A stretch of 64,000 nucleotides of DNA from Candidatus Pacebacteria bacterium CG_4_9_14_0_2_um_filter_40_15 (GCA_002788675.1 PFRS01000001.1:234706-298705), one strand, 5' to 3'. Positions 40,049 to 63,285 are shown, counted from the stretch's first letter. A program made the numbers and translations. Notes: generated by a model not told the origin, from the sequence alone.

Positions 40049-41599
40049 CTAGATTTCTGGGAGAGGAGGAAGGTCTGCTCCAGATTTTTGGTCGTTAGTT
40101 GGTGTTGCTGCTTGAACAGGTTCCGTTGTAGTGGGTATCTCAAAAATTGGTTCGATTGGTGATCCCAGTGAAGCTGCTTTATCTGGACTGGTTGTGTTCA
40201 TAACAGCACCGGCATCAGGAACAACAGCACTTATTGGTGAAGGTGCAGCTTGTTGCATATTGGGTAGTGTGGGTTTTGGTAGATCAGATGAACCAGTTGT
40301 GGAAGCAAGCGTTGGCCCTACAACCGCAGGTTTTGGTGTTGAAGGAGAACTCTTGATTGGAGATTGAGGAACAGCGACAGGTATTTCAGAAACAGTAGGT
40401 TCAGCCTCTTCAATAGTTGCTGTTTCAGTTGGAGTTGTTGTTTGTGATGGAACAGTTGTGTCTGTTGGTTTTTCAATAGCATTAGTTGGTTCTGGTTGAA
40501 TTGGTTCTGTTGAAGCAGTGGGTTCAGCTAGAGTAACAGCTACTGGCTCGGGTGATGCTAGGGGGTCTGGTGTCGCCGGTGCAGGACTTTCAGTTGGCTG
40601 GACAGCAACTTCAGGTTGTGTTTGGGCATCGTCTACAGGAGTAGGTGTTGCTGGCATTTGAGTTGGCGTATAGCCTTGAGTTGTTGCCGTTTGAGCTGGA
40701 AAAGAAGTGCTTTCTTGAGGAAGCGTTATTTCAGAAGGAAGTGTTACTGGGAAATCGGGTGATAGCTGGGCAGGAATACTTGCAGGTTCAGGAACGGGTG
40801 TTGGAAGAGCTCCTGGGAGAGTAGCTTCTTGTTCTTGAATAGCTGTAGCTGCCGCTGTGGCAACAGGAACAGGCTGATTCATGGTTGGGTTTTGAGCGTC
40901 GTTCATCGTGGCTCCTTCAACTCCAGCTGTGACCATTGGAGTGGTGTAATTACTAGTGTCAGAAATTTGCTGCCCCTCGGCCGCTTCTGGGTTATAGCTT
41001 ACATAGAAAAATTGAATGATCTCTTGAGTTGCTAGTTGTCTAGCAAAAAGTCCAATTCTTCCAAACTGGGCAAGTAAGTGATCTCGTTTTGGTTCAAGTA
41101 AATTGCGAGCCTTTTCAATTACAGCAGTGCGTTGCTCGGGGTTAATAGCTGAGGTATTTGACTGACCAGGCATGATACTCTGAGCAGGTAAAATTCCCAG
41201 CTCGATAGGCGCTGCTGAAAGTGCCACATAGAATTTTTTATCAAGAACATTTCTTTCTCTAATTAAATTACCGACAAACTCTCGATAGCGACGGATTCGC
41301 TGTTGCTGTGTTCGAGATGTTGATTGATCTTCTTGGTCTTTGAGAATTTGAAGATAGCTAGTTACGTCTTTTGTTTGTGAATGGATAATAATCTGAATTG
41401 GATAGTTAAGAGAATTGAGTAATCCTGCATAAGAATACATGATGCTGTCTTGTTCTTCTTCAGCAAGCAAACCGAAGTTCATTGCATCAACTTGAATAAT
41501 AAGAGAACAGGTACCATCCTTGAGAATTACCATGTTATTAGTAATATCGAAAATATCAAGAAATTTTTGAGTGGTTGAGTGTAAAATATTTTCAGTCAT
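40049..41599 (-). CDS. Hypothetical T4SS-operon protein: about 240-aa N-terminal domain plus 270-aa Pro/Thr/Ala-rich tail
   Basis: No TM; the tail is PTxxP/TTPTE-type low complexity; 14 nt upstream of virB4-like. Confidence 0.4.
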   Translation of the reverse strand: MTENILHSTTQKFLDIFDITNNMVILKDGTCSLIIQVDAMNFGLLAEEEQDSIMYSYAGLLNSLNYPIQIIIHSQTKDVTSYLQILKDQEDQSTSRTQQQRIRRYREFVGNLIRERNVLDKKFYVALSAAPIELGILPAQSIMPGQSNTSAINPEQRTAVIEKARNLLEPKRDHLLAQFGRIGLFARQLATQEIIQFFYVSYNPEAAEGQQISDTSNYTTPMVTAGVEGATMNDAQNPTMNQPVPVATAAATAIQEQEATLPGALPTPVPEPASIPAQLSPDFPVTLPSEITLPQESTSFPAQTATTQGYTPTQMPATPTPVDDAQTQPEVAVQPTESPAPATPDPLASPEPVAVTLAEPTASTEPIQPEPTNAIEKPTDTTVPSQTTTPTETATIEEAEPTVSEIPVAVPQSPIKSSPSTPKPAVVGPTLASTTGSSDLPKPTLPNMQQAAPSPISAVVPDAGAVMNTTSPDKAASLGSPIEPIFEIPTTTEPVQAATPTNDQKSGADLPPLPEI

Positions 41600-41638: not shown

Positions 41639-42832
41639 TCAACTCAAACTTCGAACTTCAATTGGTTGTACCAAGTCTCCGGTTAATTGAATACTCATTG
41701 GTTCAAAAGAGAAGCCATCTTTGTCGACTGTTATGGTGTAATTCCCGTTTGCTAACGGCGTGGTCACAAAGAATTGACCGAGCGCATTTGTTTTAACAGC
41801 TCTGGCAACTGTGCCATCTTGTTGCAAAATTTCGATTATGGCATTAACAATGAGCTCATTATTTGGAGAAAGCACCATTCCAACGAGTTTATTTGGTTCA
41901 CTTGGAGATTCTGGGAAAGGTAGATTTGTGTTGAATTCAGCCTGGTCAGCCATCGTTTGATCATTTTTTGTGCCGTATGCTTCATTACCCATAAAGGTCA
42001 TTGAATCTTCAGCTGGTGTAGAAGTAGTGTCTGTTTCAGCCTCCACAGCTTGTTTGTTTGGATCAACAACAGCAATGAGTTGCGTTTCGGGAATGGCGAT
42101 TTCTTGAGCTACATCTTTGGCATCTTGTTGTTGTTTTGCAAGGACATTGCGTTGCGTGTACATATCAGTTAGGGCTGAGTCTGAGCTGGGAACTGCTCCA
42201 ACAGCATGAGTAGCATTTTGCTGAGGTAGTGCTTGTCCTTCAGCTGAGTACACAACATTTTCTTGGTGTAATGGTCGTAAGTTACGCACGCGCACTCCAA
42301 GTTTGGGCTTGGTGATTCTTCTTGATTTAGCTGTAGTTGGATCTGACTTAACGCTTGAAAAAGTACCCAGAATTGCATTCATTCGATCGATTTCATCTGA
42401 ATCAAATGAGTAAGGGTCTTCAACATTGGGAACAGATGTTAAGTATTCACGGATACGTTCTTTTTTAACTGGGCCTAGATCAACGTCCATCTCGGTGCGA
42501 GGACTAGACATATTTGGTGTAAAACTAAAAACTTCCGGAACATGAGCCTCTCGTTTCCAAAAGAATTGAGTTGGTTTATACATAACTCGAATAAAAGTGA
42601 GAATCCAGTGATCAAGTGGCCGTTCTTCAATGGGTAAAAATGCGATTAGTCCACCTGAAACCCCGGAAAAGAGCATAAGGGGATATTTAATAGCCGCGGG
42701 AAGATTTGTAGAGTAAAAAAGAGCAGCAAGACCTACACCCAGAGCAATTTCAACAAATTGCTTCAGAGTCATGCTTCCAATAATATGGAATTTATAACCG
42801 GTGATGTCTTGAGGAATTGGATGTTCTCTCAT
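41639..42832 (-). CDS. PrgI/VirB3-like two-TM N-terminal module fused to a large C-terminal extension with carboxypeptidase-regulatory-like beta-sandwich
   Basis: HPIPQDITGYKFHIIGSMTLKQFVEIALGVGLAALFY plus a second TM resembles PrgI-family (Gram-positive VirB3 analogue) openers; C-terminus NGNYTITVDKDGFSFEPMSIQLTG is CarboxypepD_reg-like. Confidence 0.45.
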   Translation of the reverse strand: MREHPIPQDITGYKFHIIGSMTLKQFVEIALGVGLAALFYSTNLPAAIKYPLMLFSGVSGGLIAFLPIEERPLDHWILTFIRVMYKPTQFFWKREAHVPEVFSFTPNMSSPRTEMDVDLGPVKKERIREYLTSVPNVEDPYSFDSDEIDRMNAILGTFSSVKSDPTTAKSRRITKPKLGVRVRNLRPLHQENVVYSAEGQALPQQNATHAVGAVPSSDSALTDMYTQRNVLAKQQQDAKDVAQEIAIPETQLIAVVDPNKQAVEAETDTTSTPAEDSMTFMGNEAYGTKNDQTMADQAEFNTNLPFPESPSEPNKLVGMVLSPNNELIVNAIIEILQQDGTVARAVKTNALGQFFVTTPLANGNYTITVDKDGFSFEPMSIQLTGDLVQPIEVRSLS

Positions 42833-42932: not shown

Positions 42933-43565
42933 TTAGCGAGGAAAAGCCTCTGGCTGAGTTGCTTCTGTGCTTAATTGACGCCCCCAGTTGAGCATAAAGG
43001 TTTCTGTGTCGGTTGGTTCAAAATGCCAAGTTTGATTAATAACTTTATTTGAGATGTTGGCAACAATTACTAAGCCTTCATCTAAAAATACGTGTGCTTT
43101 AACATTTTCATTCACTTGAGGTGCGAATAATTCAAAGTCGGGCTCACCATAGAGAGTGATGTAGTTTGAAAGTGTATTGTTTTCATCGAACTTTGCTGGA
43201 ATCTGAATAAATTCGACAATTCCTTCTTTATTTACGAGTATCTCATTATGATAGGCTGCAAAATGTTCAGAGGAATAGGTAATATGTTGTTTTTCAGCTG
43301 GTAGATTCTCAACTTCGAGAGGTTTTCCTAACTCTTCGAGCAGTTTTGGAGTCAGTTTAAATCCAGGAGTTAGGCCTTGCCATGTGTTTTCTTGAACGGG
43401 AGGTTCTTCAATGGGAATAAACTGTTGAACTGCTGATGCGATTACCAGCAACACTGCCAAGACAGCTAAAAAGATGAAAATAATTTTTGTATATTTATTT
43501 TTTTTTGGTTGCTTTGATTGCTCGTACGCTTGATTCTGGTATTTGTGGGCATTTTGTTGTTGCAT
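42933..43565 (-). CDS. Membrane-anchored hypothetical protein (translationally coupled, TAATG overlap)
   Basis: ATG at 43565 overlaps the TAA of the upstream giant gene; TM IIFIFLAVLAVLLVIASAV; 210 aa. Confidence 0.4.
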   Translation of the reverse strand: MQQQNAHKYQNQAYEQSKQPKKNKYTKIIFIFLAVLAVLLVIASAVQQFIPIEEPPVQENTWQGLTPGFKLTPKLLEELGKPLEVENLPAEKQHITYSSEHFAAYHNEILVNKEGIVEFIQIPAKFDENNTLSNYITLYGEPDFELFAPQVNENVKAHVFLDEGLVIVANISNKVINQTWHFEPTDTETFMLNWGRQLSTEATQPEAFPR

Positions 43566-46500
43566 TAGTATTCTATCCCTCCAAAAATATTTTCTTGAAT
43601 CCATGCATATTCTACCGGATAGCGAGACTTGAATGGGAACATGCCTGTCCAGCCATCATTGCTGAAGCTGAGTGTTTGCCAGACAACATAGTCTACAACA
43701 GCTTCTGCAAATGCTTCACCCTCTGAACAGTTACCCGGAACTGGATAGGTAAAGCAGCCGGAATCTCCGGGAAGCGGAGAGGTCTGAATTGCTTTGAATT
43801 GTGTTTGTAAATCTGGCATTGATGGAACAGCTGGTTGGTTTCTAGCATTTATCATATGCCCAGTTTCATGGACTATGGTGTATTCCATCCATTCCACGCT
43901 TGAATTAAAGAAGTCACCGTAAAAACCAATTTTTTCGGTGTTCACTCTCCAACCATAGTATCCTTGAGGGCTTGGTGGCCATTTATGTAGTGAAATATCG
44001 CCTTTTTCACAGAGAAGTGACAAGTACTTGGGATTAGTTCCAACCTTGCTAATAAATGCTCTTAGGAATTTTATAATGTCATCTTTAGTCCACTCAACGG
44101 AGGTATTTACGATAGTTTGGCCAGCGTCATTTTTATATTCTGTTGGTTGATCAGCAGGGGCAAACTCAAAACATCCAATCGGAGGATCTCCTATAATTAA
44201 CATACCGAGTGCCGAGATACTTTCTCCTTGTATTAGGAGCTTTCCGCTGCCGTCATATACGTCAACAACAAAGGTAACGGTATTAATTACCAATGCATCT
44301 TCACCAGAAATTGGCAGCGTATATTCAGCTGTTTGAACGGTTGAAAATTTTTCTTGATCAAAGTTATCAATAGTTAGCGGAGAGTCTGGAACTGTTGCCT
44401 CACCGCCAAGAACCAAAAATTCGTCAGTGACGCGTTTAATTTGCAGGGCATAGCCAGGCTTGGGAAGTATTTTAATTTCGTATGAAATGTCCTTTTCCTC
44501 ATTGTTGTCAATTTCATCAGGCGTTGGTGTTTTTACTATAGTTGCGTATTTAGAGACAGTTGGAGTGCCTTTACTAATGGTAAAGGGCATCGGTACCAAA
44601 AAAGCACCCATGATGACCATAAAAACAATCAATGTCATAAATCCAGGCAAAATAACACTTGTCCCCACTGCGATTGCGGGAAGTGAGGTTAAAAATGAAC
44701 CAGTAGCTGCTGCAGCAGCTTGCAGTCCCGATACTGTTGCAGCCGCAGGAGCAGTTGCTGTCGCGGTGGATCCAGCAACGGCTTGTTGACCGATGTTAGT
44801 AACAGCCTGTACAGCATTGCCTGTTCCTTGAATAACCCCATTTGCTGCTGCTTGGGTACCTTTTGCAATTTGGAGAGGTGTTGTAGCGCTTGTTCCGCTG
44901 CCAAAGACGGAGTTTGCTCCAAATGAGGGAGCGCTGAGCCCTGCGCTAGCAGTACCAGTGGCTGGGCCCTTGCCTATGAGGTTCATGAACCAATTTTGGG
45001 CGGCTAGACCTGCGTTGGCGCCAGCAGACACTCCTAAAAATATAGCGAGTGGGCTTCCAACTCCAAGTACGCCACCTATAATTCCACCAGCAACTCCTCC
45101 AATCATACCTCCCACAGTTTGAAGGGCTTGAATGGTTTTATAGATCAGGGCGCCAACAGCGCCAGCAGTGAGACCAGTTAGGGCTAGGGCTAGTTTTTTT
45201 GTATTTTCTTTACCAATAAGTAATTCAAGTGCTCGAGCTCCAGCAACAACTGCAGTACCCACTCCGGTACCCATAGCAAGTTTTTCTGCAATTTTTTTTG
45301 CAGCTTCGGTTTTGATTTTGCTTGAGGCTGGGTTACCAGCTGCTGCCTTAAATGCGCCCGAAAGCTTTGATGCTGTTCCGGTAGCGGCAGCGACATTATC
45401 AGAACCTGATCCAGTTTTTTTGTTTGAGTCTCCGCCCGATGAGATTTGTTGCTGTGAGACGACCATTTCTTGCAAGCTTTGTTGATCGAGCGGCACTTGC
45501 TCATGCATCTGATCTAAAACTTTTTCATCAATTTGAATTACGAACTCGTTTCGAATGTGAAGGGATAGTGTTTCAGCTCGTTGAACGGTTACAACATATT
45601 CGTTCATCTCTTGAGCTATTGCTAGTTGCTCAAGTTGCGCTTCTTCAGCGACTGTTTGTTCATCAATAATTATTTGAGTGTACTTTTTTAAAAATTTTGG
45701 ATCGAGTTCAGCAATGTTAATTGGCATGGGATATCCCTCAGGAGGATGTTTGCCATCTGGGGTTGGATAATATGCTCCCAGTAGTGCCATTGCAACTGCC
45801 TGTTCTTCAGGTTTAAGGCTGCGCCAAGTTAATCCAAATATTTTTTCATTTTGTTCAAGAGCACGTTGAATTTTTTTTCCTGTTTTATCACTTGTAGTTG
45901 AAATTGCATCTGCAGTAAGTTCACCCTTTTCATCACCACTTGATGCATGAGAAGTAATGGTGTTTCTTACACTGTTGATCAACTCAACTGATTCAGCAGA
46001 GCCCAGGTCTGCATCACCAATAAGACCATCTTTAGTTTTTTCTTCTTGTGTATGTAGTGTGAGTTCAGACACTCTAATTTCAACAAATGAAACAAGAGTT
46101 CCCTTAAGGGCTTCAACTTGATCAGGAGTTAAATCATATGCGGAAAGACCAAATATAAGTTCAATTTTTTGTTTATCAAATGAACTAATAAGCCCAATGG
46201 CTTTGTCACCATGGGTAATCGCTATACTTTCAACAATTTTTTCAACATTTTTATCAACTACTGGATTTTTATCATTAATAATTGAATGCAGTTTTTTCTC
46301 AAAAATTTCTTGAGATGAGCGAACCTCGTTAAATTGAGGAACATTATTTTTTTCGTAAAAGTTTTTTTCTCTAAGTAGTCTGCTTAATCCTCGTATAGCT
46401 TTGAGTCGGGCAGTTGGACTACCAGAAAGCAGAGCTGCTAGGTCACCTTCTTTACCTAAATATTGGGTAGCGTAGTCAGTTAATTGGGCCCTCAATGCTG

Positions 46501-47308
46501 GATCAAGGTCACTCATCTCAACACCCATGCTGTCCGCAATTTGAAGCATAGTGAAGCTCGTCATCCAGCCGACACTAATGCCATATTGTTTTAGTTGTTC
46601 TTGGGAAAGTTGTTCGTTGAGTGGACGTTTAGGATCAATTACTTGATCTTTTTTGAGAAGTGTTTCAGATGCATCCTCGTCGTCTTCAGCATCACCGTCA
46701 CTTGTGTTGGGGGTATTACTTTCACTGAGTTCTTTTCTGAGTTTAATTTTAATATCCTCAGCTGCTTCTTGTGTTTCTACTTCCTCAATAATTTCATCTT
46801 CTTCTTTTTCTGGTTCAGGTTCATCACTTTTTGCAAAAGCAAGAGCTAGTTTATTTGCTAGCTCAGCAATTTCATGTCTTTTTGTCCATGTTGTTAGTTC
46901 GTCGACGACGTCAACCGGTGTGTTAGAAGCAGAAACCCAAGACTCAAGTTGTTTTTCGGTTGTTGCATATGCTTTAAATGCTTCTCGAGAAGCGGAATTT
47001 CTGAATTTTTGAGCTAAGTCGAGCAATATTGCCGCATAATCAGACCAATAAAAATTGTCATCCTGTTCTTCTATTGGGACACCATCTCTTGTGTAATGAG
47101 AAACAGTTAATTCATGTATGTTGCGATCTGAATCAAGAGGAATTCTAACAATCAAGCCAGATTGTAATTCTTCATTACGAACTACTTTTTGGAGCTCTTT
47201 AAGTACTTCTTCAAGTTGAGGACGATTCCGTTTTAATGACAGAGAAGAATTAAGTCGTTTTACGTCTTTAATTTTGACTTCTTCTGGAAGATTATTGTCG
47301 GCTGCCAT
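43565..47308 (-). CDS. Giant (1247 aa) protein: acidic coiled-coil N-terminus, Gly-zipper membrane core, C-terminal HExxH zincin-like metallopeptidase domain
   Basis: IVHETGHMINA (HExxH), with a downstream CSEGEAFAEAVVDY segment that could supply the third zinc ligand (not verified). The central region has GxxxG/AxxxG repeats (GGMIGGVAGGIIGGVLGVGSPLAIFLGVSAGANAGLAA). Confidence 0.55.
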   Translation of the reverse strand: MAADNNLPEEVKIKDVKRLNSSLSLKRNRPQLEEVLKELQKVVRNEELQSGLIVRIPLDSDRNIHELTVSHYTRDGVPIEEQDDNFYWSDYAAILLDLAQKFRNSASREAFKAYATTEKQLESWVSASNTPVDVVDELTTWTKRHEIAELANKLALAFAKSDEPEPEKEEDEIIEEVETQEAAEDIKIKLRKELSESNTPNTSDGDAEDDEDASETLLKKDQVIDPKRPLNEQLSQEQLKQYGISVGWMTSFTMLQIADSMGVEMSDLDPALRAQLTDYATQYLGKEGDLAALLSGSPTARLKAIRGLSRLLREKNFYEKNNVPQFNEVRSSQEIFEKKLHSIINDKNPVVDKNVEKIVESIAITHGDKAIGLISSFDKQKIELIFGLSAYDLTPDQVEALKGTLVSFVEIRVSELTLHTQEEKTKDGLIGDADLGSAESVELINSVRNTITSHASSGDEKGELTADAISTTSDKTGKKIQRALEQNEKIFGLTWRSLKPEEQAVAMALLGAYYPTPDGKHPPEGYPMPINIAELDPKFLKKYTQIIIDEQTVAEEAQLEQLAIAQEMNEYVVTVQRAETLSLHIRNEFVIQIDEKVLDQMHEQVPLDQQSLQEMVVSQQQISSGGDSNKKTGSGSDNVAAATGTASKLSGAFKAAAGNPASSKIKTEAAKKIAEKLAMGTGVGTAVVAGARALELLIGKENTKKLALALTGLTAGAVGALIYKTIQALQTVGGMIGGVAGGIIGGVLGVGSPLAIFLGVSAGANAGLAAQNWFMNLIGKGPATGTASAGLSAPSFGANSVFGSGTSATTPLQIAKGTQAAANGVIQGTGNAVQAVTNIGQQAVAGSTATATAPAAATVSGLQAAAAATGSFLTSLPAIAVGTSVILPGFMTLIVFMVIMGAFLVPMPFTISKGTPTVSKYATIVKTPTPDEIDNNEEKDISYEIKILPKPGYALQIKRVTDEFLVLGGEATVPDSPLTIDNFDQEKFSTVQTAEYTLPISGEDALVINTVTFVVDVYDGSGKLLIQGESISALGMLIIGDPPIGCFEFAPADQPTEYKNDAGQTIVNTSVEWTKDDIIKFLRAFISKVGTNPKYLSLLCEKGDISLHKWPPSPQGYYGWRVNTEKIGFYGDFFNSSVEWMEYTIVHETGHMINARNQPAVPSMPDLQTQFKAIQTSPLPGDSGCFTYPVPGNCSEGEAFAEAVVDYVVWQTLSFSNDGWTGMFPFKSRYPVEYAWIQENIFGGIEY

Positions 47309-47370
47309 GATTCGATTATACCAGGGAAAACAGTAGTTAGAAAGTTGGCATGTTAATTTTTTACTTTAAA

Positions 47371-49287
47371 TTATTTGGAGAAAGAGGCAATTTGTGATTT
47401 AAATTCATTTTGGTTTGCTTGAAAGACGGTAATAATTTTTTTTGCCGTTTTTTCTGGTTCTAACACAAACTCTGAAAGATTTACTTTTTTTGAAAGATAT
47501 AAAAGTATTGGGTGAGCTAATATTCTCACAGAATCGAAGAACTCATTGAAGAGAAGATCGCTCACATCCACAGATTTCTTTAATGATTCTTTTAATAGAA
47601 ATAATACATAGTCAAAGCTTTTCATGTCCTCATTATTTGAGACACCTTTTTTAAAGGCACTTTCAAGAACAGAAAAACTTTGTTCAGGATTATTGAGCAA
47701 ATCATTTTTAAGATTTTGACGTAATGCCTCTAGCTGAGCATGTTCGGATTTTGTTAAAACCAGATCATCATTTCCGCGAGAGTCACCTCTCAGGGCCCAA
47801 CCACAAGGTCCAATGGGTATGCCGTCTTCAGATAACTGGAGAGAATTTGATTTAAAGAAATCAGAGTATTCCTTGTGGTGTTCTGCTTTAATGAACCAAG
47901 TTTCTCCATTAGATAAGCGAAGTGGTAAATACTGCAATGTGTTTAGATAGTGTAATGCCTCAATTTTTTCTTTTGGTCCTAGGCTTGTTAGCATGCCTGG
48001 AATTGTTGGAATTGGTATTCCTGGAATAGCAGAAAGTATTTGTTCTGACATCATTCTAGTTGGAATAAATGTGCCTATGCCACATTGTCCAAGGCTTAAG
48101 CCTTTTGAAGTTGTTGAGAGAAGCATATTAGAAAGTGAATTATGCTCATCCACTAGATCAGATTGAATTTTTTGACCATGTAGTTTTCTTACATTTAAAT
48201 CATATATTTTGAGTAATCCATTTTTAACTTTATCTTGAGTAAGGTCTTGAATTTGCAGATCTGATGTATTATTGCTTTTCATTAACTTCAAGTAGTTTGT
48301 TTTGTTTGTGTTATTTGTATCACTCCCTTCTACCCACTTTATGAGTGGTTGATAGGCGAGAATGCCAAAAGCAATATCCAACTGCTTAATGAGCTGAGCG
48401 TATTCTTTTGACTGAACAAAATTCATCCAAAGTGGGTCAGTATGACTTTCAACTTCGGGTACTTTTGATAGTAATAGTGGAATAACTTTGCTAATATACA
48501 GGCTTAATAAAAAGTCCCTAAATTGAGCATATTTTTGTTCATCAATTTGTGGCATTTCGTGTGGTTTAACCTTCCAGGAATCAGATGACGAATAGGCTTT
48601 TTTTTCTAGTAATGAAACACATTCAAGTGTGGTGGAACAGTTTAAGTCTTTGGGTGAAACGATTTGTGTGTTATTAATTATTTTATGCGAGTCTATTCGT
48701 GAAGAGTTATCAAAACCTTCGTTTTGGGTAATGAACTTTTGAAAATCCAAATGATCTTGAAGGCTCATCCATGTTCTGTACTGATGAAGTACTACTGTGG
48801 TAGGTGAAGTCTTTTCATATACAAAAATAAATGAATGTGAATTAAGTCCAGCATATCCCTCTGAGACTAGCCCAGGAGGACTGTTCCAAACAAATAACTG
48901 GCCGACCGGTGCGGTAGAAGACCACAAGTCAAGTTTAATCATGTTGTTGGTTTCAATTTGGGCTCGACTTGGTGATTTTTTTTGATTGATGAGTTTATCT
49001 TCAAAATGTTCACCCATACCAAGAATACCTGCGGTGTAAGAACTCATCATTCCAAGAAGTCCATTCTGTTGATCGACGTCCATCTGAAAAGCAGAAATTA
49101 CTTCACCTCTAGTATATTCAGCGGCAAACGAAATGAAATTAGCTGTTAACAGTGTTGAAAGTGCATCAAAATCACGATATTCAGATAAAGCCGCGATGCG
49201 CACATACGCTGCGGCATCCCATTGATCAAACTGACTAACAACAGCTTCTTTCTGATTTATAGGGTTGCGTGATTCTTTTTGTAACAA
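47371..49287 (-). CDS. Hypothetical protein (638 aa), first gene of the T4SS-like operon
   Basis: No recognisable motif; TTG start at 49287 overlaps the U-tract of the leader hairpin; true start uncertain. Confidence 0.4.
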   Translation of the reverse strand: MLQKESRNPINQKEAVVSQFDQWDAAAYVRIAALSEYRDFDALSTLLTANFISFAAEYTRGEVISAFQMDVDQQNGLLGMMSSYTAGILGMGEHFEDKLINQKKSPSRAQIETNNMIKLDLWSSTAPVGQLFVWNSPPGLVSEGYAGLNSHSFIFVYEKTSPTTVVLHQYRTWMSLQDHLDFQKFITQNEGFDNSSRIDSHKIINNTQIVSPKDLNCSTTLECVSLLEKKAYSSSDSWKVKPHEMPQIDEQKYAQFRDFLLSLYISKVIPLLLSKVPEVESHTDPLWMNFVQSKEYAQLIKQLDIAFGILAYQPLIKWVEGSDTNNTNKTNYLKLMKSNNTSDLQIQDLTQDKVKNGLLKIYDLNVRKLHGQKIQSDLVDEHNSLSNMLLSTTSKGLSLGQCGIGTFIPTRMMSEQILSAIPGIPIPTIPGMLTSLGPKEKIEALHYLNTLQYLPLRLSNGETWFIKAEHHKEYSDFFKSNSLQLSEDGIPIGPCGWALRGDSRGNDDLVLTKSEHAQLEALRQNLKNDLLNNPEQSFSVLESAFKKGVSNNEDMKSFDYVLFLLKESLKKSVDVSDLLFNEFFDSVRILAHPILLYLSKKVNLSEFVLEPEKTAKKIITVFQANQNEFKSQIASFSK

Positions 49288-49560
49288 AAAACTCCTCGAT
49301 TGAGGAGCAGGGGCGGTTACCTTGAGGAAACAAAGAGTAATGCCCGATGCTCGTCGGTTTATTTTTCCTCACCGACCGGGCTTAGCACTTTAGATGCATT
49401 ACCGTTGCGGCACAGCTCTGGATTCACACCAGATTCCGTGAGGTTCTATTACTTTACTCACAATTAGGTGTAGTTGCAATAGGAAAACTTGATGAAAACG
49501 CAATAAAATTTTCTTTTAAGTCACTAAATTGCTCAGATTTTACACTCTTCAATACACCTG
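49288..49560 (-). ncRNA. Structured 5' leader (candidate riboswitch or attenuator) of the T4SS-like operon
   Basis: On minus strand: stems CCTCAC...GTGAGG and CTGGTGTGAATCCAG, then hairpin GCTCCTC-AATC-GAGGAG + UUUUUUG that sequesters the GAGGAG SD immediately before the TTG start. Confidence 0.3.
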
Positions 49561-49589
49561 TTTAACATCGAGTGAAGATGATATAATTA

Positions 49590-52500
49590 ATGAGTATGGG
49601 TAGATCAGAGTCAATATCAACACCACTATCTGAACAGTACAAGGCGTTAGTTGTTGATCTTGTTAATGCTATTAAGGCTAAGGATTTTGTTTCAGCTGCT
49701 AACAAAATGTCTGATATTCAGATGGTCATTTCGTATGAGATAGCCACTACAGATTATTCGAATCTAGATAATGAACGTAAATACCCAGGCCTTGCAGATT
49801 TTAATTATTTTTTTGGTGATATTGAAACAGATTGGCAAGAGATTCCCTATTTAGCAGCCCAGATTTCAGATGTGGAACCCGCTGCAGCAGTTGTAGCGGA
49901 TGATGTTGAGCCGGTAGCCTCCAAACCTGTTGCAGCTGAAGCTCCCGTAGCCCCAGAAAATAAAGAAAAAACATGGATTCAAGAATATGAAGAGAAGAGA
50001 ATAGCGTTGGCTCGACTAACGTATGCAACTCAAAAAGCTTCTGATGCAAGCTTTGCTCAAAACTTTGATTTCTTTAATGAGCTTTTAGCTGCAGATGAAG
50101 AGACGGATATTCAAGAGCTTATTGATTCAAATAAAATTGATCCGGTTGATCATTCGATTGTTGAAAAAATTAACGAACTTGTTGCGGAAATAAACCTTAG
50201 GATTCAAACTGAGTCTCTTGGAGATGAAAAAGAAAAATATGATGTTCAAAGAGAGCTAGTAGGACAATTAAAAGAATCTGTTAGATCATTTGAACCAGTA
50301 CTGGTTGCTAACAAACTATTTACTGATGTTGTCTCCTCTTATAGTTCAATACTTGTCGTAAGATCAACGTTTGACCCAGGATCCTATGATTCAATAGATC
50401 TGTTTGAAGCAGAACTAAAAACAACAACAAAAAAACTTGCTGGCATAACATCAAAGATTGATGCTTTAGATTCGATTTCAACACAACTTGATCAAAAAGA
50501 GAGAGTTAATTTTTTGCGAGAAGTTGTCTCACGAGTTTCTCGAATAATTTCAAATGGAGAAAATGAAGTTGAAACCTCTCGCAAACTCTTACAAGATGCT
50601 GAGTATATTGACTTTGTTGCAGAAGTTGATAAGAAAACAGAACTTTCCAGTCTTACTTCTGAAGTTGCTCGTCCACCAGCAGATGTCACTACGTCTGATA
50701 TAGATATTGATCGAAGAATTGACAGGTTGAAGCAAAAACTTGCTGAGTTTAAGGCCGCTATACAAGCAGACCCTTCGTTTAGTGATGCTGCAAAAGAACA
50801 GTATTTAAGAACTGATTTTAATGGTTTTGAAAAATCTGTGACAGAAAAAGCAGCATTACTTCAATTCCAAATGGATTCTAATACCACTTATAGAAAGTTG
50901 CTTGATTTAACTACAAAAGTTGCGGCAGGTGTTTCTGAAGATGAGCTGGAAAAAATTCGAGTAGAGGCAGAAAGCTACAATGGTCAAATAACAGAGTTAG
51001 AATCACGCAAAGATGCTCAACTTACTACGTACGTTGATACCCTTACTAAGGTCTATTATGATCTGTTAAAAGTCACAAAATCTAAGATTGAATCTGAAAG
51101 AAAGACGTCAGTCTTTAAAAAGCTTGAAGAAAGATTAGAAAAAGCCACTCAAACAGCAACATACGTTGTTGATTCTCATCACGATGAAGTATGGGAGACA
51201 TATGAATCTATACAACAAGCCTATGAGTCGTTTGCAGAATCATACGGAAGCAATGAAGAATTCGAAAAGAAACTTAAAATTGAATTTTATAAAATTTATC
51301 GAAGATCCATGCTTGCTGCACTTGATGAAATTGAAAGAGAAGAGCAGCCGTCCCCAGCATGGAAATCAATATTTCAAGATAAAATACTTGGAAAATCACA
51401 AAATCTTGTTCAGGATATTGTTGGAATTAGTCTGGGTAGCTTAGATGATTTTACTGAGGCAGTAAAAACTAAAGGGACTGCTGGTGCAGTTACGGTAGAT
51501 ACTCGAACCTTAACACTGCATGAGCAAAATTTAATTGAAGATTTTAATAAACTCAGAACAGAGTACGTGTCAAGAAAGTTTTTACATCTCAGCTGGACTG
51601 CAAATAGAGTTGGTGTTCTTGGTAGAGGTGAAGGAACAAGAACCTTTCCAAACTTAAATATAGATGAAAATTGGCCAATTGGTGTCGTACTTAACTACCT
51701 AATGAAGGATGGACTTCGAAGTAGTGAAGTAGGAGATGGTCAAATCTTAAGTGAAATTACCAATCCGATTATGGAAATTCAAAGGGTCGATCACCCACTT
51801 GGATTCTCGACAGATGCGGACGGAAATTTAGTTGCAACAGAAGGTGATGTTGCTCTATACGATGCTTCGAAAAGAGGTACAACCAAGCATGACGTTGCAC
51901 TTTTTGAAGATGTCTTCCTGGCGATGGATGATTGGGTTGCCGGCACTATTAAAGCAAGAAGAGGCACGGGAGATGTTCATAATGATGTTGATGGTGTAGC
52001 TGAAGACATCATGCTGTTCTTACAAAAAAAATATCCAGATAGAAAAGATGAAATAACAAAAGGAGATGTAAGAAGAGCTGTTAGATCATATCTTATCGTT
52101 ACGTATCATCAGTCGGTGAGATCGCACCGCAGTGCGATTTTATCAGATAAAATGATGTATCAGTGTTCATTTTACCTGTACAGTGAAAAGTATTCTGAGG
52201 ATGGTACTGCTGGATGGAATCCGAATTTTGTTAAGGCCATGTATGCCTATCCGTATCCTGCAGGATCTGATCTGAGCAGGGTAGATCCAATGTATGTGAC
52301 TAAGGGAAATTATGTGAATACGATTCCTGTGATTCTCGGAGAACATCCTGATATTGATGCTGAAAAACATTGGATATTTAGGGTTCTTGAAGGTAAGCCT
52401 TTTACTCAAATGGAGAATGCTTTGCGCGATGAAGGCTTTTTGGTCGACATGCAAACAGCATTTAATCATTCTGATGGAAGACCTAAAACCTTTGCTGAAC

Positions 52501-53372
52501 TAGATCCTAAAATTCAAGCTCGATTGGAAGAAGATCACTTTGTTGGCTATAATTTCTTACTTCGACCACTTATTAGAATGGCTGATACAACTCAAACTGC
52601 TCGGACAAAAGATGTTATTTTGGACACTCCAGATCCTGTAACGGGCAAACATTACAGAAGAGAAACTGTTCCAGATGAAAAAGATGCTGGTGAAATGTAT
52701 ACTCAAATGCCACCGATGGCAACAGTTTTTCTAAAGGATAAAAATGGAAATATTATTAGATATCGTGAAAAAGATGGTAGAAAAACCAGAGCAGTATCTC
52801 TCTTTGACCTCAGAAATGAAAATGACCAGATTATGTATGGTCTGATTGATTGGGACAAATATAGTATTGATTTAGCTTCAGAAGTAACTGGTTTGCATAA
52901 AAATGGTGCAAATTTCTTGGACAATTTCTTAAAGACTAAAGACGTTCTTAAATCATTAGAAGATCCAGCAAAGGTTTCAGAATTATTAAATGACGCAAAA
53001 TATGTATTGCGTCACTTACCGGATCTTGGACAGTATATTGCTGCAGGAATTCACGCAACAGATGAAGTAAAAGCCCAAGGATATGATAGTCCATATTACA
53101 TGTTAGACAAAGGATTTATGAGAACAATCATTGCTCAAATGGTCTTTCATGGTTGTTTAGCTCGAATGCTAAGTGATGAAAAACCCTGGAGAATGGCTGA
53201 TGTGCAATCATATTTAATTAAACTCTTAAGACCTGAAAGTAATGCTATATCTGTTGAAACAGCTGAAGCAATATATATCTCTCTCAATGCCGCACTCGGT
53301 CGCAAAGCTATGGTTAAAGCTGTGGTTGATCAGGCTAGAGTACAATTCAGAGAGAGATTTAAACACTCTTAG
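49590..53372 (+). CDS. Giant (1260 aa) soluble hypothetical protein, divergent from the T4SS-like operon
   Basis: No signal peptide, TM or catalytic motif recognised; coiled-coil-rich N-terminal half; TATAAT directly abuts the first ATG (possible leaderless start; second ATG at 49596). Confidence 0.5.
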   Translation: MSMGRSESISTPLSEQYKALVVDLVNAIKAKDFVSAANKMSDIQMVISYEIATTDYSNLDNERKYPGLADFNYFFGDIETDWQEIPYLAAQISDVEPAAAVVADDVEPVASKPVAAEAPVAPENKEKTWIQEYEEKRIALARLTYATQKASDASFAQNFDFFNELLAADEETDIQELIDSNKIDPVDHSIVEKINELVAEINLRIQTESLGDEKEKYDVQRELVGQLKESVRSFEPVLVANKLFTDVVSSYSSILVVRSTFDPGSYDSIDLFEAELKTTTKKLAGITSKIDALDSISTQLDQKERVNFLREVVSRVSRIISNGENEVETSRKLLQDAEYIDFVAEVDKKTELSSLTSEVARPPADVTTSDIDIDRRIDRLKQKLAEFKAAIQADPSFSDAAKEQYLRTDFNGFEKSVTEKAALLQFQMDSNTTYRKLLDLTTKVAAGVSEDELEKIRVEAESYNGQITELESRKDAQLTTYVDTLTKVYYDLLKVTKSKIESERKTSVFKKLEERLEKATQTATYVVDSHHDEVWETYESIQQAYESFAESYGSNEEFEKKLKIEFYKIYRRSMLAALDEIEREEQPSPAWKSIFQDKILGKSQNLVQDIVGISLGSLDDFTEAVKTKGTAGAVTVDTRTLTLHEQNLIEDFNKLRTEYVSRKFLHLSWTANRVGVLGRGEGTRTFPNLNIDENWPIGVVLNYLMKDGLRSSEVGDGQILSEITNPIMEIQRVDHPLGFSTDADGNLVATEGDVALYDASKRGTTKHDVALFEDVFLAMDDWVAGTIKARRGTGDVHNDVDGVAEDIMLFLQKKYPDRKDEITKGDVRRAVRSYLIVTYHQSVRSHRSAILSDKMMYQCSFYLYSEKYSEDGTAGWNPNFVKAMYAYPYPAGSDLSRVDPMYVTKGNYVNTIPVILGEHPDIDAEKHWIFRVLEGKPFTQMENALRDEGFLVDMQTAFNHSDGRPKTFAELDPKIQARLEEDHFVGYNFLLRPLIRMADTTQTARTKDVILDTPDPVTGKHYRRETVPDEKDAGEMYTQMPPMATVFLKDKNGNIIRYREKDGRKTRAVSLFDLRNENDQIMYGLIDWDKYSIDLASEVTGLHKNGANFLDNFLKTKDVLKSLEDPAKVSELLNDAKYVLRHLPDLGQYIAAGIHATDEVKAQGYDSPYYMLDKGFMRTIIAQMVFHGCLARMLSDEKPWRMADVQSYLIKLLRPESNAISVETAEAIYISLNAALGRKAMVKAVVDQARVQFRERFKHS

Positions 53373-53415
53373 GCAGTGTTCAAATGGCAATATAAAATGC
53401 ATTTAAATATAAAAA

Positions 53416-53441
53416 AAGCTCATATTTTATGAGCTTTTTTT
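53416..53441 (+). terminator. Intrinsic terminator after the 1260-aa gene
   Basis: aagctcat-attt-atgagctt followed by TTTTTTTG. Confidence 0.55.
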
Positions 53442-53650
53442 GATTATCTGGACTTGTCTAGTTTATGAACCTGCACGGTTATTATTGGCGTCTTCAGAAT
53501 TATTTTTTTGTGAATGAGTAGTATTAAATTTTCTGCTGGATTTTTGTGAAATGACTAATCTGTGAAGAGGTAAAGGGAGTGAAGTATTAATATCTCTCAG
53601 CTTAGCTTTGGGATCAGTTGTATCTTGTTGCACTATTGCGTTCCTTATTG

Positions 53651-55429
53651 TTAACTACCTGCTCTATCTTCATTTGAATTTGCTCCGCCAGCTGGTACTG
53701 CACCTGTTGAGCTTGTCTCAGCACCTCTATTACTTGGAGCCTGAACTCCACCTCTACCAGACAAGCCAGCATTTCGTAATGCCATATCATTAAGTACACG
53801 TTTTGCAATTTGGCCTGATTTACTTTCATTTCTTTCAAGTCTTCTTTGGGCTTGTCCAATTGACTCACCAACTAGGAATTGACCAGCTTCTTGTTTAGCT
53901 GCGTTGTAGGTAGATCTTATAAGTGGTTTAGCAACTTTTATACCAGTAGGAACAGCTGCACCAATTGCTGCGCCTCTCCCCGCACCTTTCCAGAAGCTAC
54001 CACCTTTACTCTTAGCTCTTACACCACCAATTGCTGCTCCAGCAGCACTTGATCCTGCTGATGCACCTAGGAAGGCACCACCCTTCATGATATTTTTAGC
54101 TCCGACGCCCTTATATCCTTCCCATCCTTTTTTAGCTCTATCCGTAGCCCAACCAGCAACCTTAGTTCCAAAGCCTTCTTTAGCGCCGACTTTTTCTTTT
54201 ATTTCTTTCACAATTTCAGGCATGGCCAAAATAAGTGCCAGCCCCATTAAAGATGAAATTGCTCCTGCTTGTCCACGACCAAGTAAGAAAGGAGGCATAA
54301 AGCCGCCACTTGTAGCGTTACCTAAGTCAGTAAATTGGTTGTAGAGAATAACTATAAAAAGAACTGTTGGGAATGCCGCTAAGTTTCCTGCGACATTGCG
54401 TAGCCAAGGTACGAAGGCATTATTACCTGGAATGGCACCCATCATGAGTGTAATTGGCGAGATAACAGTTGCAATAACCACGTTTGCGTAACTCTTAAGG
54501 AGTTCAAAGAAAAGTTTAAAAGTACCAAATATAACGGCGACGGTCAAAATTAAGGTGAGCGTCATGCCTCCAACAAATCCAAACGCAGTAGTCAGTCCAT
54601 TGTCGGCACTGACTAGGTTTGAGAGCATATTAGTAATGAGGTCAACATTCTGGTTAAATGATCCAGCAACGTTTCCAAACAAAAGTCCTCCAATTTGGAG
54701 AATATTAAAGTCGATTACATTAGCATCAGCCAGGCGTGTATCAAAGATACCAATCATTAGGAACATAAGCAGATACATTAAATCAATCATGAATCCAGCA
54801 ATAGCATACGAAAAGGTAACAAAGAGCAGCGACACAATTATACTTGGGATAGCTTGTTGTGCGGTTACGTCTGCACCATTCACTTTATTCCGGAACATAA
54901 TCATAAAACCAATAATCATGAATACAAACACAAAGAATAAGTAGGCCATATTTCGGAATGTTTTCCAGAGAGAAAGAATTGGATCAAGAGCAGCAAAGCC
55001 AAGTCCTTGAGCATACGCTGGAGTAGCAATGTGTGCGCTCTTCATAACGTCGGCAACATAGGTTCCTGTGCTTGCTGGAGGGTTTGCATACATCTGGCCG
55101 ATTAAGTAGACGAAGCCGCTTGAAACCATGTTTGGTTGTGGGACACTCGAACCAGGTCCGGTTCCGGTTCCACCAGCAGATGGAGGAGTACTTTGGGCTG
55201 GCGCATTTGCAATTTCAAATTGAATATATTTATAAACATGATGCACCAAACACTCCAAAGAAGGAGTGCCGCAGTCTTGGATAGCTTCATTATATGAATC
55301 TTTTAAGGCTGATTCGTAGGCAGGACTAAAAGGACTTTCGCCTTGAGCTTGCACGCTAGCAGGGTTCCCAAAACCAATAAGGAATACAAACGCAACTGCT
55401 AGTAGTGCGGTGAGGGCTCGTTTGAGCAT
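53651..55429 (-). CDS. TrbL/VirB6-like polytopic T4SS membrane protein with Gly/Ala/Ser-rich C-terminal tail
   Basis: Signal peptide (AVAFVFLIGFGNPASVQAQ); 6-7 TM helices in the central region; C-terminal about 200 aa of GAxxGA low complexity, typical of TrbL/VirB6 family members. Confidence 0.55.
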   Translation of the reverse strand: MLKRALTALLAVAFVFLIGFGNPASVQAQGESPFSPAYESALKDSYNEAIQDCGTPSLECLVHHVYKYIQFEIANAPAQSTPPSAGGTGTGPGSSVPQPNMVSSGFVYLIGQMYANPPASTGTYVADVMKSAHIATPAYAQGLGFAALDPILSLWKTFRNMAYLFFVFVFMIIGFMIMFRNKVNGADVTAQQAIPSIIVSLLFVTFSYAIAGFMIDLMYLLMFLMIGIFDTRLADANVIDFNILQIGGLLFGNVAGSFNQNVDLITNMLSNLVSADNGLTTAFGFVGGMTLTLILTVAVIFGTFKLFFELLKSYANVVIATVISPITLMMGAIPGNNAFVPWLRNVAGNLAAFPTVLFIVILYNQFTDLGNATSGGFMPPFLLGRGQAGAISSLMGLALILAMPEIVKEIKEKVGAKEGFGTKVAGWATDRAKKGWEGYKGVGAKNIMKGGAFLGASAGSSAAGAAIGGVRAKSKGGSFWKGAGRGAAIGAAVPTGIKVAKPLIRSTYNAAKQEAGQFLVGESIGQAQRRLERNESKSGQIAKRVLNDMALRNAGLSGRGGVQAPSNRGAETSSTGAVPAGGANSNEDRAGS

Positions 55430-55654: not shown

Positions 55655-56617
55655 ATGTTAGATCAGGCTCAGTTAAATACAATTCGATCCTATTTTGAAC
55701 AGGCCCATACAGTTACCATCGTTTGCGGGGTAGAACCCAGCATTGATGTTTTGGCCGCAGTTTCCGTTTTAAACCAAGCCCTTGCTTCTCAAGGAAAAGA
55801 AATTCAGTTAGTCAGTCCAAATACTATAGATTCTCCCGTTGTTTCAGGACTGGGTGGGGTAGAAGACTCAATTGGTAATCAGAACTTGGTTGTAAGTTTT
55901 CCCTATGATGAAACAGCTGTCGACAAGGTGAGTTATCATATTGGTGAAGATTCAGGTCAGTTTTTTCTTACCATAAAGCCAAAAAAAGGTCATGATCCTT
56001 TAGATTCTAATCAAGTTGAGTTCACCTATGCAGGAGTTGAAAGTGATTTGCTTGTACTGGTTGGTGTGACAAACTTCGATGAACTCAACCAGCTCTACGT
56101 TGGATATGAAGAGTTCTTTGAGAAAACTCCAAAAATTTCATTTACTGCTAATGGTTCTAAACTCGGAAACGTAAATATTTCATCTACAGGCTATTCGTCG
56201 ATTAGTGAATGCTTATTGGTTCTCTTAAACAGCTTACAAATCGATTTTTCAGTTGATAGTGCGACTAATTTGTTCTCGGCAATCGATGTGGAAACTGATT
56301 ACATGCGCTCACTAAAGGCAAGCGCTATTACTTTTGAAGCTGTGGCTCAACTCATGAGACTCGGTGCTCGCAGAGTAAGGCCTGAAAAACTACAAAAGCA
56401 AGATGTTGGGCAGAAAGTTTCGACTCGTCCTCTACAAGAAACAGAAATAGCAATTTCAAGTTCAAAATCACAAAAGAAACAAGATTCTCTAACTGAACAA
56501 CAAAATCAATCTAAGAAGATGAAACTGAAAAAACACAAACAGTCTCTTCCTAAAGATACAAGAAACCAACCTGGTGGTCTTAAGTATGATCCATCTAATG
56601 GTATTTCACGAAACTAA
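55655..56617 (+). CDS. DHH/NrnA-like fold protein with degenerate catalytic motifs
   Basis: Layout resembles NrnA-type DHH phosphoesterases (VTIVCGVEPSIDVLAAVSVLNQAL; LVLVGVTNFDEL), but the canonical DHH and GGGH motifs were not seen. Confidence 0.3.
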   Translation: MLDQAQLNTIRSYFEQAHTVTIVCGVEPSIDVLAAVSVLNQALASQGKEIQLVSPNTIDSPVVSGLGGVEDSIGNQNLVVSFPYDETAVDKVSYHIGEDSGQFFLTIKPKKGHDPLDSNQVEFTYAGVESDLLVLVGVTNFDELNQLYVGYEEFFEKTPKISFTANGSKLGNVNISSTGYSSISECLLVLLNSLQIDFSVDSATNLFSAIDVETDYMRSLKASAITFEAVAQLMRLGARRVRPEKLQKQDVGQKVSTRPLQETEIAISSSKSQKKQDSLTEQQNQSKKMKLKKHKQSLPKDTRNQPGGLKYDPSNGISRN

Positions 56618-60655: not shown

Positions 60656-61198
60656 CTAAGATAATGTTTTGGTGTTTTCAAGGACTTCTTGTAATGACTC
60701 AAATCCAAGAAAGTTCAAACCTAAAGTAAGAATAGCAAAACTTGAAGCTAAAATAATCAAGCCAATTATTGCTGCTATCAGACGTTGTCGTGCAGAATCA
60801 ACTTTGCCTTTATCTCCACCAGATGTGATCCAATAAAAGCCAGCGAGGATAAGTTGAAGAAAGACTAATAATGCTCCAAGAAGCATTACTAAACTTAAAA
60901 TCGCGTTAAAAAGAGTACCTACATTCGTTGCAAATCCTGTTGGAATGGTAATCCGAACATCTTTAAGAAGGTCATGTTTTATTTGGGCAGAAGTAGTACT
61001 GATTTTTTGAGCAGAGTTGGTCGCCGTTGTTGTTAAGTAGAGCGTTTCCCCGTCACGGTGTGTGGTAACGTCGTTACCTGTACCAGCAGCAAGAACAGCT
61101 CTGGGTTGGCAGAAGAAAAAAACAGTCATGAGTAAGAGTATAAAAAGTAATGTTTTTTTCATAACTAGTATTATAGTATCTATATCAAAATATATCAA
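60656..61198 (-). CDS. VirB2/TrbC-like mini-protein, paralog 2
   Basis: Signal peptide; loop YWITSGGDKGKVDSARQRLIAAIIGLIIL between two hydrophobic helices. Confidence 0.5.
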   Translation of the reverse strand: MIYFDIDTIILVMKKTLLFILLLMTVFFFCQPRAVLAAGTGNDVTTHRDGETLYLTTTATNSAQKISTTSAQIKHDLLKDVRITIPTGFATNVGTLFNAILSLVMLLGALLVFLQLILAGFYWITSGGDKGKVDSARQRLIAAIIGLIILASSFAILTLGLNFLGFESLQEVLENTKTLS

Positions 61199-61242
61199 AC
61201 ACGCTTGGCGTGTTTTTTAGCTTAAAGAAGCTAACGGCTGTA

Positions 61243-61272
61243 CCAAAAGCGCCAGGCAATTTGCCTGGCGCT
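61243..61272 (-). terminator. Intrinsic terminator after paralog 3 (same stem sequence as the 3484 terminator)
   Basis: aagcgccaggc-aattt-gcctggcgctt; on minus strand followed by TTTTGG. A second hairpin, aacacgc-ttgg-gcgtgtt plus T6, lies at 61218-61243. Confidence 0.5.
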
Positions 61273-61292
61273 TTCTAGTTTCTATTTTTAGA

Positions 61293-61700: not shown

Positions 61701-61790
61701 GTGTCTCCTTATTTTTTTTACGGTTACAAACTTATATGTAATTATACCTATGTTCCAGACTAATAGTCAAGCATGGTTATCGAGGCGTCT

Positions 61791-62366: not shown

Positions 62367-62386
62367 ATGTTCTTTCCAAGTGTGAT

Positions 62387-62854: not shown

Positions 62855-62858
62855 AGTG

Positions 62859-63227: not shown

Positions 63228-63285
63228 AGTTCTATTATATCCTATTTGTATTTTTTTTGTACTCTATTTCTTCAAGAATGGTTTA

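Follow-up and report, generated by a model that had tools for sequence, protein, structure and literature searches.

A probable divergent cobalamin riboswitch ahead of an uncharacterised gene in a type IV secretion system-like cluster of a Patescibacterium

The DNA analysed here, called the window below, is a 64,000-nt stretch of Candidatus Pacebacteria bacterium CG_4_9_14_0_2_um_filter_40_15 (PFRS01000001.1:234706-298705). Two divergent open reading frames (ORFs) in it, for proteins of 638 aa (47371-49287, minus strand) and 1260 aa (plus strand), are separated by a non-coding gap of 302 nt (49288-49589), in agreement with the roughly 300 nt given in an earlier note on this DNA, and they lie within a cluster resembling a type IV secretion system (T4SS). 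This gap contains a structured leader of the 638-aa gene that, judged from its sequence, is very probably a divergent cobalamin (vitamin B12) riboswitch of the short-P6 kind, the ligand being presumed. The earlier note had described a riboswitch-like leader with a terminator-like hairpin that sequesters the Shine-Dalgarno (SD) sequence, and had matched this leader to none of the riboswitch families listed there; the description is supported by the family match reported below, and the lack of a family gives way to cobalamin, which was absent from the earlier list. The regulated gene and the features of its leader are the following.

47371..49287, minus strand: regulated gene, 638-aa protein, TTG start (49285-49287)
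49286..49308, minus strand: sequestor/terminator hairpin GCUCCUC-AAUC-GAGGAGU followed by U6 (stem-loop 49291-49308)
49292-49297, minus strand: SD sequence GAGGAG, inside the sequestor hairpin
49305..49352, minus strand: putative anti-sequestor (antiterminator), a long hairpin GAGCA(U)CGGGC ... GCCCC(A)UGCUC
49344..49357, minus strand: invariant hairpin CCGA-CGAGCA-UCGG, candidate P13/L13, identical in 12/12 DNA sequences
49367..49443, minus strand: cobalamin aptamer core, by the match to RF01482
49374-49383, minus strand: B12-box-like AAGCCCGGUC
49385-49397, minus strand: short P6 hairpin
49402-49415, minus strand: L5 region CUGUGCCGCAACGG
49418-49432, minus strand: P4 hairpin CUGGUGUGAAUCCAG
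49438-49443 paired with 49367-49372, minus strand: P1, CCUCAC/GUGAGG
49451..49456, minus strand: predicted -10 hexamer TAAAGT, with a 17-nt spacer from TTGCAA
49474..49479, minus strand: predicted -35 hexamer TTGCAA of the riboswitch promoter

Rfam scans of the whole window and of multiple loci at the gathering cut-off reported nothing. In E-value mode, the minus strand at 49325-49457 matched the AdoCbl family RF01482 over the full length of the model (47.7 bits, E=1e-7), and when both strands of the 64-kb window were compared with 4227 Rfam families, this was the only match with E<=0.05 (E=1.2e-5). The aligned core carries the cobalamin signature, namely GGAA, the CUGGUG-GAAUCCAG hairpin, GCCGCAACGG, and AAGCCCGGUC. 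All eight relatives scanned likewise matched the cobalamin clan CL00101, which comprises RF00174, RF01482, and RF01689. The leader shares with RF01482 riboswitches the P1 stem, the GGAA junction, the P4 hairpin CUGGUG-AAAUCCAG, the L5 region GCCGCAAC, a short P6 hairpin, and the B12-box-like AAGYCCGGUC; the junction, the P4 loop, the L5 motif, and the B12 box align with the model consensus and are invariant in 12 sequences. Furthermore, the loop CGAGCA of the candidate L13 resembles the L13 consensus of the model, CGAGGCA. Unlike the model, the leader has a P1 of 6-9 bp instead of 12 bp and a candidate P13 stem of 4 bp instead of 12 bp, and these short stems mainly account for its low scores. 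Other departures from RF01482 are the sub-cut-off score in 13/13 loci, the L5 sequence UGCCG, the host from the candidate phyla radiation (CPR), and the uncharacterised downstream gene. In the literature searched, we found no report of a cobalamin riboswitch in CPR bacteria or Patescibacteria. The B12 riboswitch of M. tuberculosis ppe2 also precedes a gene of uncertain function, although that protein and that organism are unrelated to those studied here (PMC11260477).

The comparative analysis was based on 14 homologues of the 638-aa protein obtained by word search (loci of relatives carry L numbers below). The same leader was present before every homologue for which upstream DNA was obtained, giving 12 distinct full sequences and one cut by a contig end, and it was kept down to 33% protein identity of the homologue. 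The stems are conserved and covary among these relatives. P1 reads CCUCAC/GUGAGG in most sequences, CCUUAC/GUAAGG in L008 and L009, CUUUAC/GUAAAG in L003, and GAACACUG/CGGUGUUC in L011, and P4 varies from CUGG/CCAG to UUGG/CCAA in L132 and CCGG/CCGG in L134; four pairs of P1 and two pairs of P4 have changed on both sides. In the 12-sequence alignment, 98% of the cells were paired, and seven pairs had changed on both sides compared with 1.7 in shuffled alignments (0/500 as high), with all slid controls being far worse than the true alignment. P5 and P6 were uninformative in this respect because they never vary.

A covariance model built here from the aptamer and P13 of the family (R1) gave 85-120 bits on complete family members and at most 29.5 bits on 80 control loci, which had been chosen for carrying the core pattern by chance. 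The sole intermediate, L074 (29.5 bits), was rejected as it was not a cobalamin riboswitch by Rfam. On genome contigs, the DNA pattern CCGGTC..CCGACGAGCATCGG had mostly chance matches in high-G+C genomes, which were used as negative controls, in addition to the known L004 contig. A stricter DNA pattern had 0 matches on metagenome contigs, and locus searches confirmed nothing, whether run on genome contigs with the 638-aa protein or on metagenome contigs with the alignment A1. Five distant homologues (E 1e-26 to 1e-5) proved to be over-extended gene calls, the N-termini of which literally translate the aptamer core or CCGACGAGCAUCGG (for example, ...LCRNG..., ...SRRASG..., and ...DEHR...). The non-wobble bases of two of these calls imply further covariation in P4, which is only as good as the back-translation.

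A promoter of the form TTGCAn-17 nt-TAnAnT, with its distance from P1 unchanged, was found in 10-11 of the 12 relatives; the end of the -10 hexamer and the first base of P1 are 7-8 nt apart in 10 relatives and 7 nt apart in the window. This conserved promoter places the predicted transcription start at about 49444, right at P1 and upstream of the aptamer rather than downstream of the hairpin, and it predicts a leader of about 157 nt in place of the approximately 270 nt assumed in the earlier note. The G+C balance that the note had ascribed to the gap as a whole was recovered for its transcribed part (51% G+C, compared with 36-37% in the flanking genes) and not for the remaining 130 nt, the promoter spacer, with 29% G+C. 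The hairpin GCUCCUC-AAUC-GAGGAG with a U-run directly at the TTG start is present on the minus strand, as had been described, and was picked up by the terminator scan; GAGGAG is indeed the sole SD-like sequence before the 638-aa gene. Both upstream stems that had been pointed out, CCUCAC/GUGAGG and CUGGUGUGAAUCCAG, exist as well, at 49438-49443/49367-49372 and 49418-49432, and they turn out to be P1 and P4 of the aptamer instead of alternative pairings. Pairing of the P1 strands with the arms of the SD hairpin was considered and discarded, as it is lost in the P1 variants.

Between the aptamer and the start codon, the 14-mer CCGACGAGCAUCGG is the same in 12/12 sequences and can fold as a 4-bp hairpin with the loop CGAGCA, the candidate P13/L13. 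The GCCG of L5 is complementary to CG(A)GC of this loop with one bulged A and could form an L5-L13 kissing contact with it; both partners are invariant. The anti-sequestor folds as a single hairpin in 12/12 sequences, with differing interiors. Two competitions between helices are apparent: P13 and the anti-sequestor compete for GAGCA-UCGG, and the anti-sequestor and the SD hairpin compete for GCUC. When either the anti-sequestor or the sequestor was enforced, the platform energies differed by -0.8 to +4.0 kcal/mol in 12/12 sequences, and the two states are thus near-isoenergetic, as is needed for a bistable switch. On the plus strand at 49344-49357, the sequence complementary to the P13 hairpin, with TTTATTTTT after it, also scores as terminator-like; this site is probably meaningless because no plus-strand gene runs into it.

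The SD hairpin is present in all relatives, including a compensatory CUCCC/GGGAG variant in L005 and L006. In the window it qualifies as an intrinsic terminator, with seven pairs followed by U6. The U-run is absent from L003, L009, and L011, where ATG directly follows the hairpin, and is reduced to U4 in L134; termination is therefore not the conserved feature. The start position is common to the relatives (TTG or GTG), with ATG one codon earlier in L003 and L009. The comparison points to SD burial as the conserved output and to translational control as the common denominator of these leaders. SD sequences are uncommon in the window, where about 7 of the 38 genes (ORFs of at least 150 aa) have any SD-like sequence, and the 638-aa gene is therefore among the few whose translation could be gated by SD burial.

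The proposed mechanism is as follows. The minus-strand transcript would start at about 49444 and open directly with the cobalamin aptamer. With a corrinoid bound, the aptamer would be closed and P13 (CCGA-CGAGCA-UCGG) would be held shut, probably by the kissing contact between L13 and the GCCG of L5. As GAGCA and UCGG would be tied up in the closed P13, GCUCCUC would pair with GAGGAG and bury the sole SD sequence, switching the 638-aa gene OFF; in this genome, the hairpin with its U6 could also terminate transcription. In the ligand-free state, P13 would open, GAGCA(U)CGGG would pair with CCC(A)UGCUC, and the anti-sequestor so formed would free the SD sequence and switch the gene ON. A helix between the B12 box (GUCGG) and CCGAC was rejected as a universal anti-aptamer trigger, as it is found in only 8/12 sequences and is made weaker by the covariation of P1 in two sequences and lost through it in two others; in the eight sequences that have it, it would add a relay link of the same OFF sign.

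A B12-repressed (OFF) switch is likely, since the arrangement mirrors the repressing corrinoid riboswitch of Priestia megaterium metE, for which the P13/antiterminator/terminator logic was shown by mutagenesis and in which a kissing loop stabilises P13 (PMC10327014). The same relay would operate here, with GAGCA-UCGG pairing with CCC-UGCUC. Unlike in the metE system, which is purely transcriptional and was proved by mutagenesis, the final hairpin here also holds the SD sequence, and several relatives have no U-run; in addition, the proposed kissing contact requires a bulged A. The proposed ligand-dependent burial of the ribosome-binding site in a platform hairpin, driven by an L5-L13 contact, has its counterparts in the translational cobalamin riboswitches env8HyCbl and E. 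coli btuB. Unlike env8, where the ribosome-binding site is in P13 itself, an extra anti-sequestor hairpin would stand here between P13 and the SD hairpin.

Several observations weigh against a B12-repressed switch of the 638-aa gene. The score of the window is below the curated RF01482 cut-off of 50 bits, and the relatives are sub-cut-off as well, with 36-49 versus 50 bits for RF01482 or 24-29 versus 31.5 bits for RF00174. The sign-determining helices, namely P13, the L5-L13 contact, and the base of the anti-sequestor, cannot be tested by covariation because all three are invariant. The transcription start is a prediction only, and the regulated gene has no known link to B12, the usual context of B12 synthesis, B12 transport, or a B12-independent isozyme not being found. 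Finally, minimum-energy folds give the sequestor without ligand in most sequences, and cmscan put the Rfam P13 on the long hairpin in L011; if the latter were the true P13, the switch would be ON. An opposite sign of this kind, with the same aptamer and with the long hairpin as a ligand-stabilised P13 that excludes the sequestor (compare A. halodurans cobT), seems unlikely. It would suit the mutual exclusion of the long hairpin and the sequestor and the role of the sequestor as the thermodynamic default in most sequences, and there is an activating corrinoid riboswitch in which P13 itself excludes the terminator (PMC10327014). However, no conserved partner for L5 is offered by the terminal loops of the long hairpin, which are different in each sequence, the CGG motif able to pair with L5 is itself base-paired within this hairpin, and such a reading would give no reason why the CCGAC 5' strand is invariant; moreover, almost all known corrinoid riboswitches repress.

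The nature of the ligand and of the element itself can be viewed differently, too. A cobalamin-derived aptamer that has changed its ligand, either to an incomplete corrinoid such as cobinamide or to something else, would explain both the scores of all members below the Rfam cut-offs and the unusual target gene, and it could be read from the L5 sequence UGCCG, which differs from the reported consensus UCCCG, and from the P6 region, which varies from almost nothing in L011 to 60 nt in L134. Nevertheless, we regard such a change as improbable, given that the core conserved in Rfam (GGAA, the P4 loop, GCCGCAAC, and AAGYCCGGUC) is completely present and invariant and that the low scores stem mainly from the short P1 and P13. 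Still further down in probability, at the level of a very slim chance, is a leader that is not a riboswitch, being instead a structured leader to which a protein binds, or else a plain constitutive attenuator or terminator. Two results would be in line with such a leader: its fold energy, taken by itself, gives a weak z-score (-1.9 to -2.5), and the terminator scan of the window, with three sites found versus 1.8 expected, does no better than chance. The significance of the leader comes from the covariance-model match and from conservation rather than from the z-score or the terminator scan: the match to a specific family has E=1e-7, nucleotide conservation of the aptamer core extends to homologues whose proteins are only 33-34% identical, and the covariation fits the cobalamin fold.

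As to the target, it is quite probable that the riboswitch controls the 638-aa gene itself. At L011/L012, a 33%-identical homologue of 531 aa stands alone beside folD, rpsB-tsf, tgt, and queA, with no T4SS genes nearby, and the riboswitch is present there, which argues that it belongs to the 638-aa family and not to the T4SS. In addition, the next gene of the window appears to have a promoter of its own.

47315..47323, minus strand: extended -10 TGGTATAAT, a predicted leaderless-type promoter 6 nt before the ATG (47308) of the 1247-aa gene

In 9/9 relatives checked, GGTATAAT is followed after 6-7 nt by the ATG of the next gene. Since the downstream T4SS-like genes have this conserved promoter, the riboswitch would govern the 638-aa gene and not demonstrably the T4SS operon; the claim of the earlier note that the leader feeds the T4SS-like operon is thus not upheld. 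The (CCC)TGGTATAAT promoter overlaps the stop codon of the 638-aa homologue in L003 (~8072-8087) and L134 (~10060-10075), where the gap between the genes is 8 nt.

Control of the whole T4SS-like operon (the 1247-aa, PrgI-like, TraC-like, and VirB4-like genes), either by termination at the U-run or by Rho-dependent polarity, is doubtful. It would be favoured by the U6 after the hairpin in the window, by the presence of a rho gene, and by the layout of the genes on one strand with gaps as short as those in L003 and L134. The succession of the 638-aa homologue and the T4SS genes is also kept to 34% identity, as in L134, where the homologue lies on contigs of up to ~1.08 Mb and the order of the cluster is preserved from a 1162-aa protein through the VirB4-like gene. 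These features are countered by the GGTATAAT box of the next gene, by the U-run missing in 3-4 relatives, by a terminator-like hairpin (L133) or a long inverted repeat (L001/L004) after the 638-aa homologue, and by the stand-alone riboswitch of L011, which accompanies the gene family without T4SS genes nearby. Read-through or Rho polarity may still add some coupling to the downstream genes. Overall, we assign a probability of roughly 0.75 to the combined explanation of a B12 riboswitch with an OFF sign and the 638-aa gene as its target.

The 638-aa protein is soluble, with no transmembrane segment and no signal peptide, and its family comprises 98 clusters at 50% identity in an exhaustive profile search; one homologue is named Candidatus Woesebacteria. 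Neither the 638-aa protein nor 61 members of the family had a match in Pfam, NCBIfam, PHROG, or PADLOC, and the family had no match in PDB by sequence profile or by fold. Residues R108, S136, C402, G493, and C495 are invariant across the family and lie in the motifs SPPG...EGYxG, QCGxGT, and GPCG. An AlphaFold model from an alignment of 61 sequences reached a predicted local distance difference test (pLDDT) score of 85.5 and a predicted template modelling score of 0.65. LSLGQCGxGTF with C402, the motif conserved most strongly in the family, is located in residues 394-432 (~47992-48108, minus strand), and the same residues are the sole long segment that AlphaFold leaves disordered, with pLDDT <50 even in this confident model. 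In light of the model, this QCG loop may be a flexible active-site or ligand-binding loop. The B12 riboswitch that precedes the gene is the sole functional clue to the family and points, by association, to a B12-linked role, either in the acquisition or handling of corrinoids or as a substitute, independent of B12, for a B12-dependent step. Uncharacterised genes that follow a B12 riboswitch have in many cases proved to encode corrinoid transporters, corrinoid binders, or B12-independent enzymes.

The plus-strand gene on the other side of the gap has the following layout.

49579..49587, plus strand: extended -10 TGATATAAT, ending 8 nt before ATG 49596
49596..53372, plus strand: gene for a large soluble protein (1258 aa when read from ATG 49596); start of the mechanical ORF at 49590

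The NCBI gene call of 1258 aa agrees with a start at ATG 49596. A TATAAT adjoins the start of this gene, as the earlier note had it, and the leaderless mRNA considered there is very probable, given TGATATAAT 8 nt before the ATG, the absence of an SD sequence, and the same layout in L003 and L009, where TTGACA-17-TATAAT is followed after 7 nt by the ATG of the gene in this position. The protein is thus probably translated from a leaderless mRNA with its predicted 5' end at ATG 49596. The reported absence of a signal peptide and of transmembrane segments was reproduced, and there was likewise no domain or PDB match. The sole database match is an identical 1258-aa protein from a metagenome-assembled genome of Candidatus Pacebacteria.

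In relatives, the syntenic slot is occupied by large soluble proteins of 1266, 1052, and 1098 aa (L003:2170-5970, L007:1933-5091, and L134:3969-7265), which showed no similarity to the 1260-aa protein by BLASTP and phmmer. The neighbours of the slot are conserved, with 49-81% identity for the 592-aa protein and 34-64% for the 638-aa protein, and some slot proteins are connected only through a series of weak similarities in their N-terminal parts. The comparison indicates that the slot of the 1260-aa protein is itself conserved, while the protein that fills it is hypervariable. It is therefore an orphan, as it had been called, in sequence and not in position. The hypervariability would fit a partner-exposed protein, such as a secreted T4SS substrate. 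In L004 (GCA_020632255.1, JACKFX010000007.1; 2113-7695), the gene in the slot is fragmented into small ORFs, and for the 638-aa homologue a truncated protein of 564 aa is called, both being pseudogenes or assembly errors. The record of L004 is labelled 'Pseudomonadales bacterium'; the genes it contains are CPR-like, and PATE forms part of the isolate name.

The window is part of a Patescibacterial (CPR) chromosome of the Microgenomates type. It belongs to neither a plasmid nor a phage island, since BLASTN of 47000-54000 against plasmid and phage collections gave no match and the window contains dnaA, dnaN, yidC, leuS, and radA; rnhA, L25, obg, and rho are also among its genes. The Gram-positive-type T4SS-like cluster extends from ~38040 to at least 63885.

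9585-12017: VirD4-like coupling protein, ~26 kb away
38040-40034: VirB4-like ATPase
40049-41599: TraC-like protein
41639-42832: PrgI-like protein
Also in the cluster: 223-aa and 1247-aa proteins, the 638-aa gene, the gap, and the 1260-aa gene
Also in the cluster: a 592-aa polytopic membrane protein, a 320-aa protein, and a 1154-aa protein with a lysozyme-like domain
60656-63885, minus strand: four tandem T4SS pilin paralogues (T4SS_pilin domain, PF18895), located at the cluster's far end

The VirB4-like gene directly adjoins dnaA-dnaN (36266-40034), and the cluster thus lies beside the usual marker genes of a replication origin. Its VirB4-like ATPase, TraC-like and PrgI-like proteins, 592-aa polytopic and 1154-aa lysozyme-like proteins, and four pilins are in line with Gram-positive-type and Patescibacterial T4SS clusters. 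Among described T4SS proteins, there is no match to either the 638-aa or the 1260-aa protein. At least 9 of the 38 ORFs of at least 150 aa lack an SD sequence and have a -10-like TAnnnT hexamer whose end is 6-8 nt upstream of the ATG.

13870-14382, 14409-15347, 25096-27345, 38040-40034, 42933-43604: genes with the leaderless layout
43565-47308, 49596-53372, 53651-55429, 55655-56617: further genes with this layout

Leaderless translation thus looks common in this genome.

The leader described here is an ordinary kind of element in an unusual place, a cobalamin riboswitch amid a T4SS-like cluster of CPR bacteria, and no T4SS component is known to be under riboswitch control. It shows that an entire subgroup of cobalamin riboswitches in CPR genomes goes undetected at the Rfam gathering cut-offs. 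Being a compact natural ligand-controlled switch from a Patescibacterium, the leader could also be put to use as an inducible expression tool, which the field lacks. For the gene behind it, the riboswitch labels as B12-linked an uncharacterised family of 98 clusters for which neither a domain match nor a fold relative was found. The central position of this gene within the T4SS-like cluster is kept down to 34% protein identity in the Pacebacteria- and Woesebacteria-type relatives examined.

A T4SS of this type is a conserved feature of Saccharibacteria and is essential in S. epibionticum, with a role that has been described as completely unknown (PMC11665869). A speculative possibility is that the 638-aa family represents a new corrinoid-related protein that works with the Patescibacterial T4SS-like machine, perhaps by taking corrinoids from a host cell; in a variant of the same proposal, it may take host nucleotides or DNA when a B12-dependent ribonucleotide reductase is starved. 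Under T4SS-dependent uptake, the 638-aa protein may be a factor that is switched off when B12 is plentiful. If T4SS-dependent corrinoid uptake is true, B12 would be the first physiological signal, and the riboswitch the first functional clue, for this secretion system.

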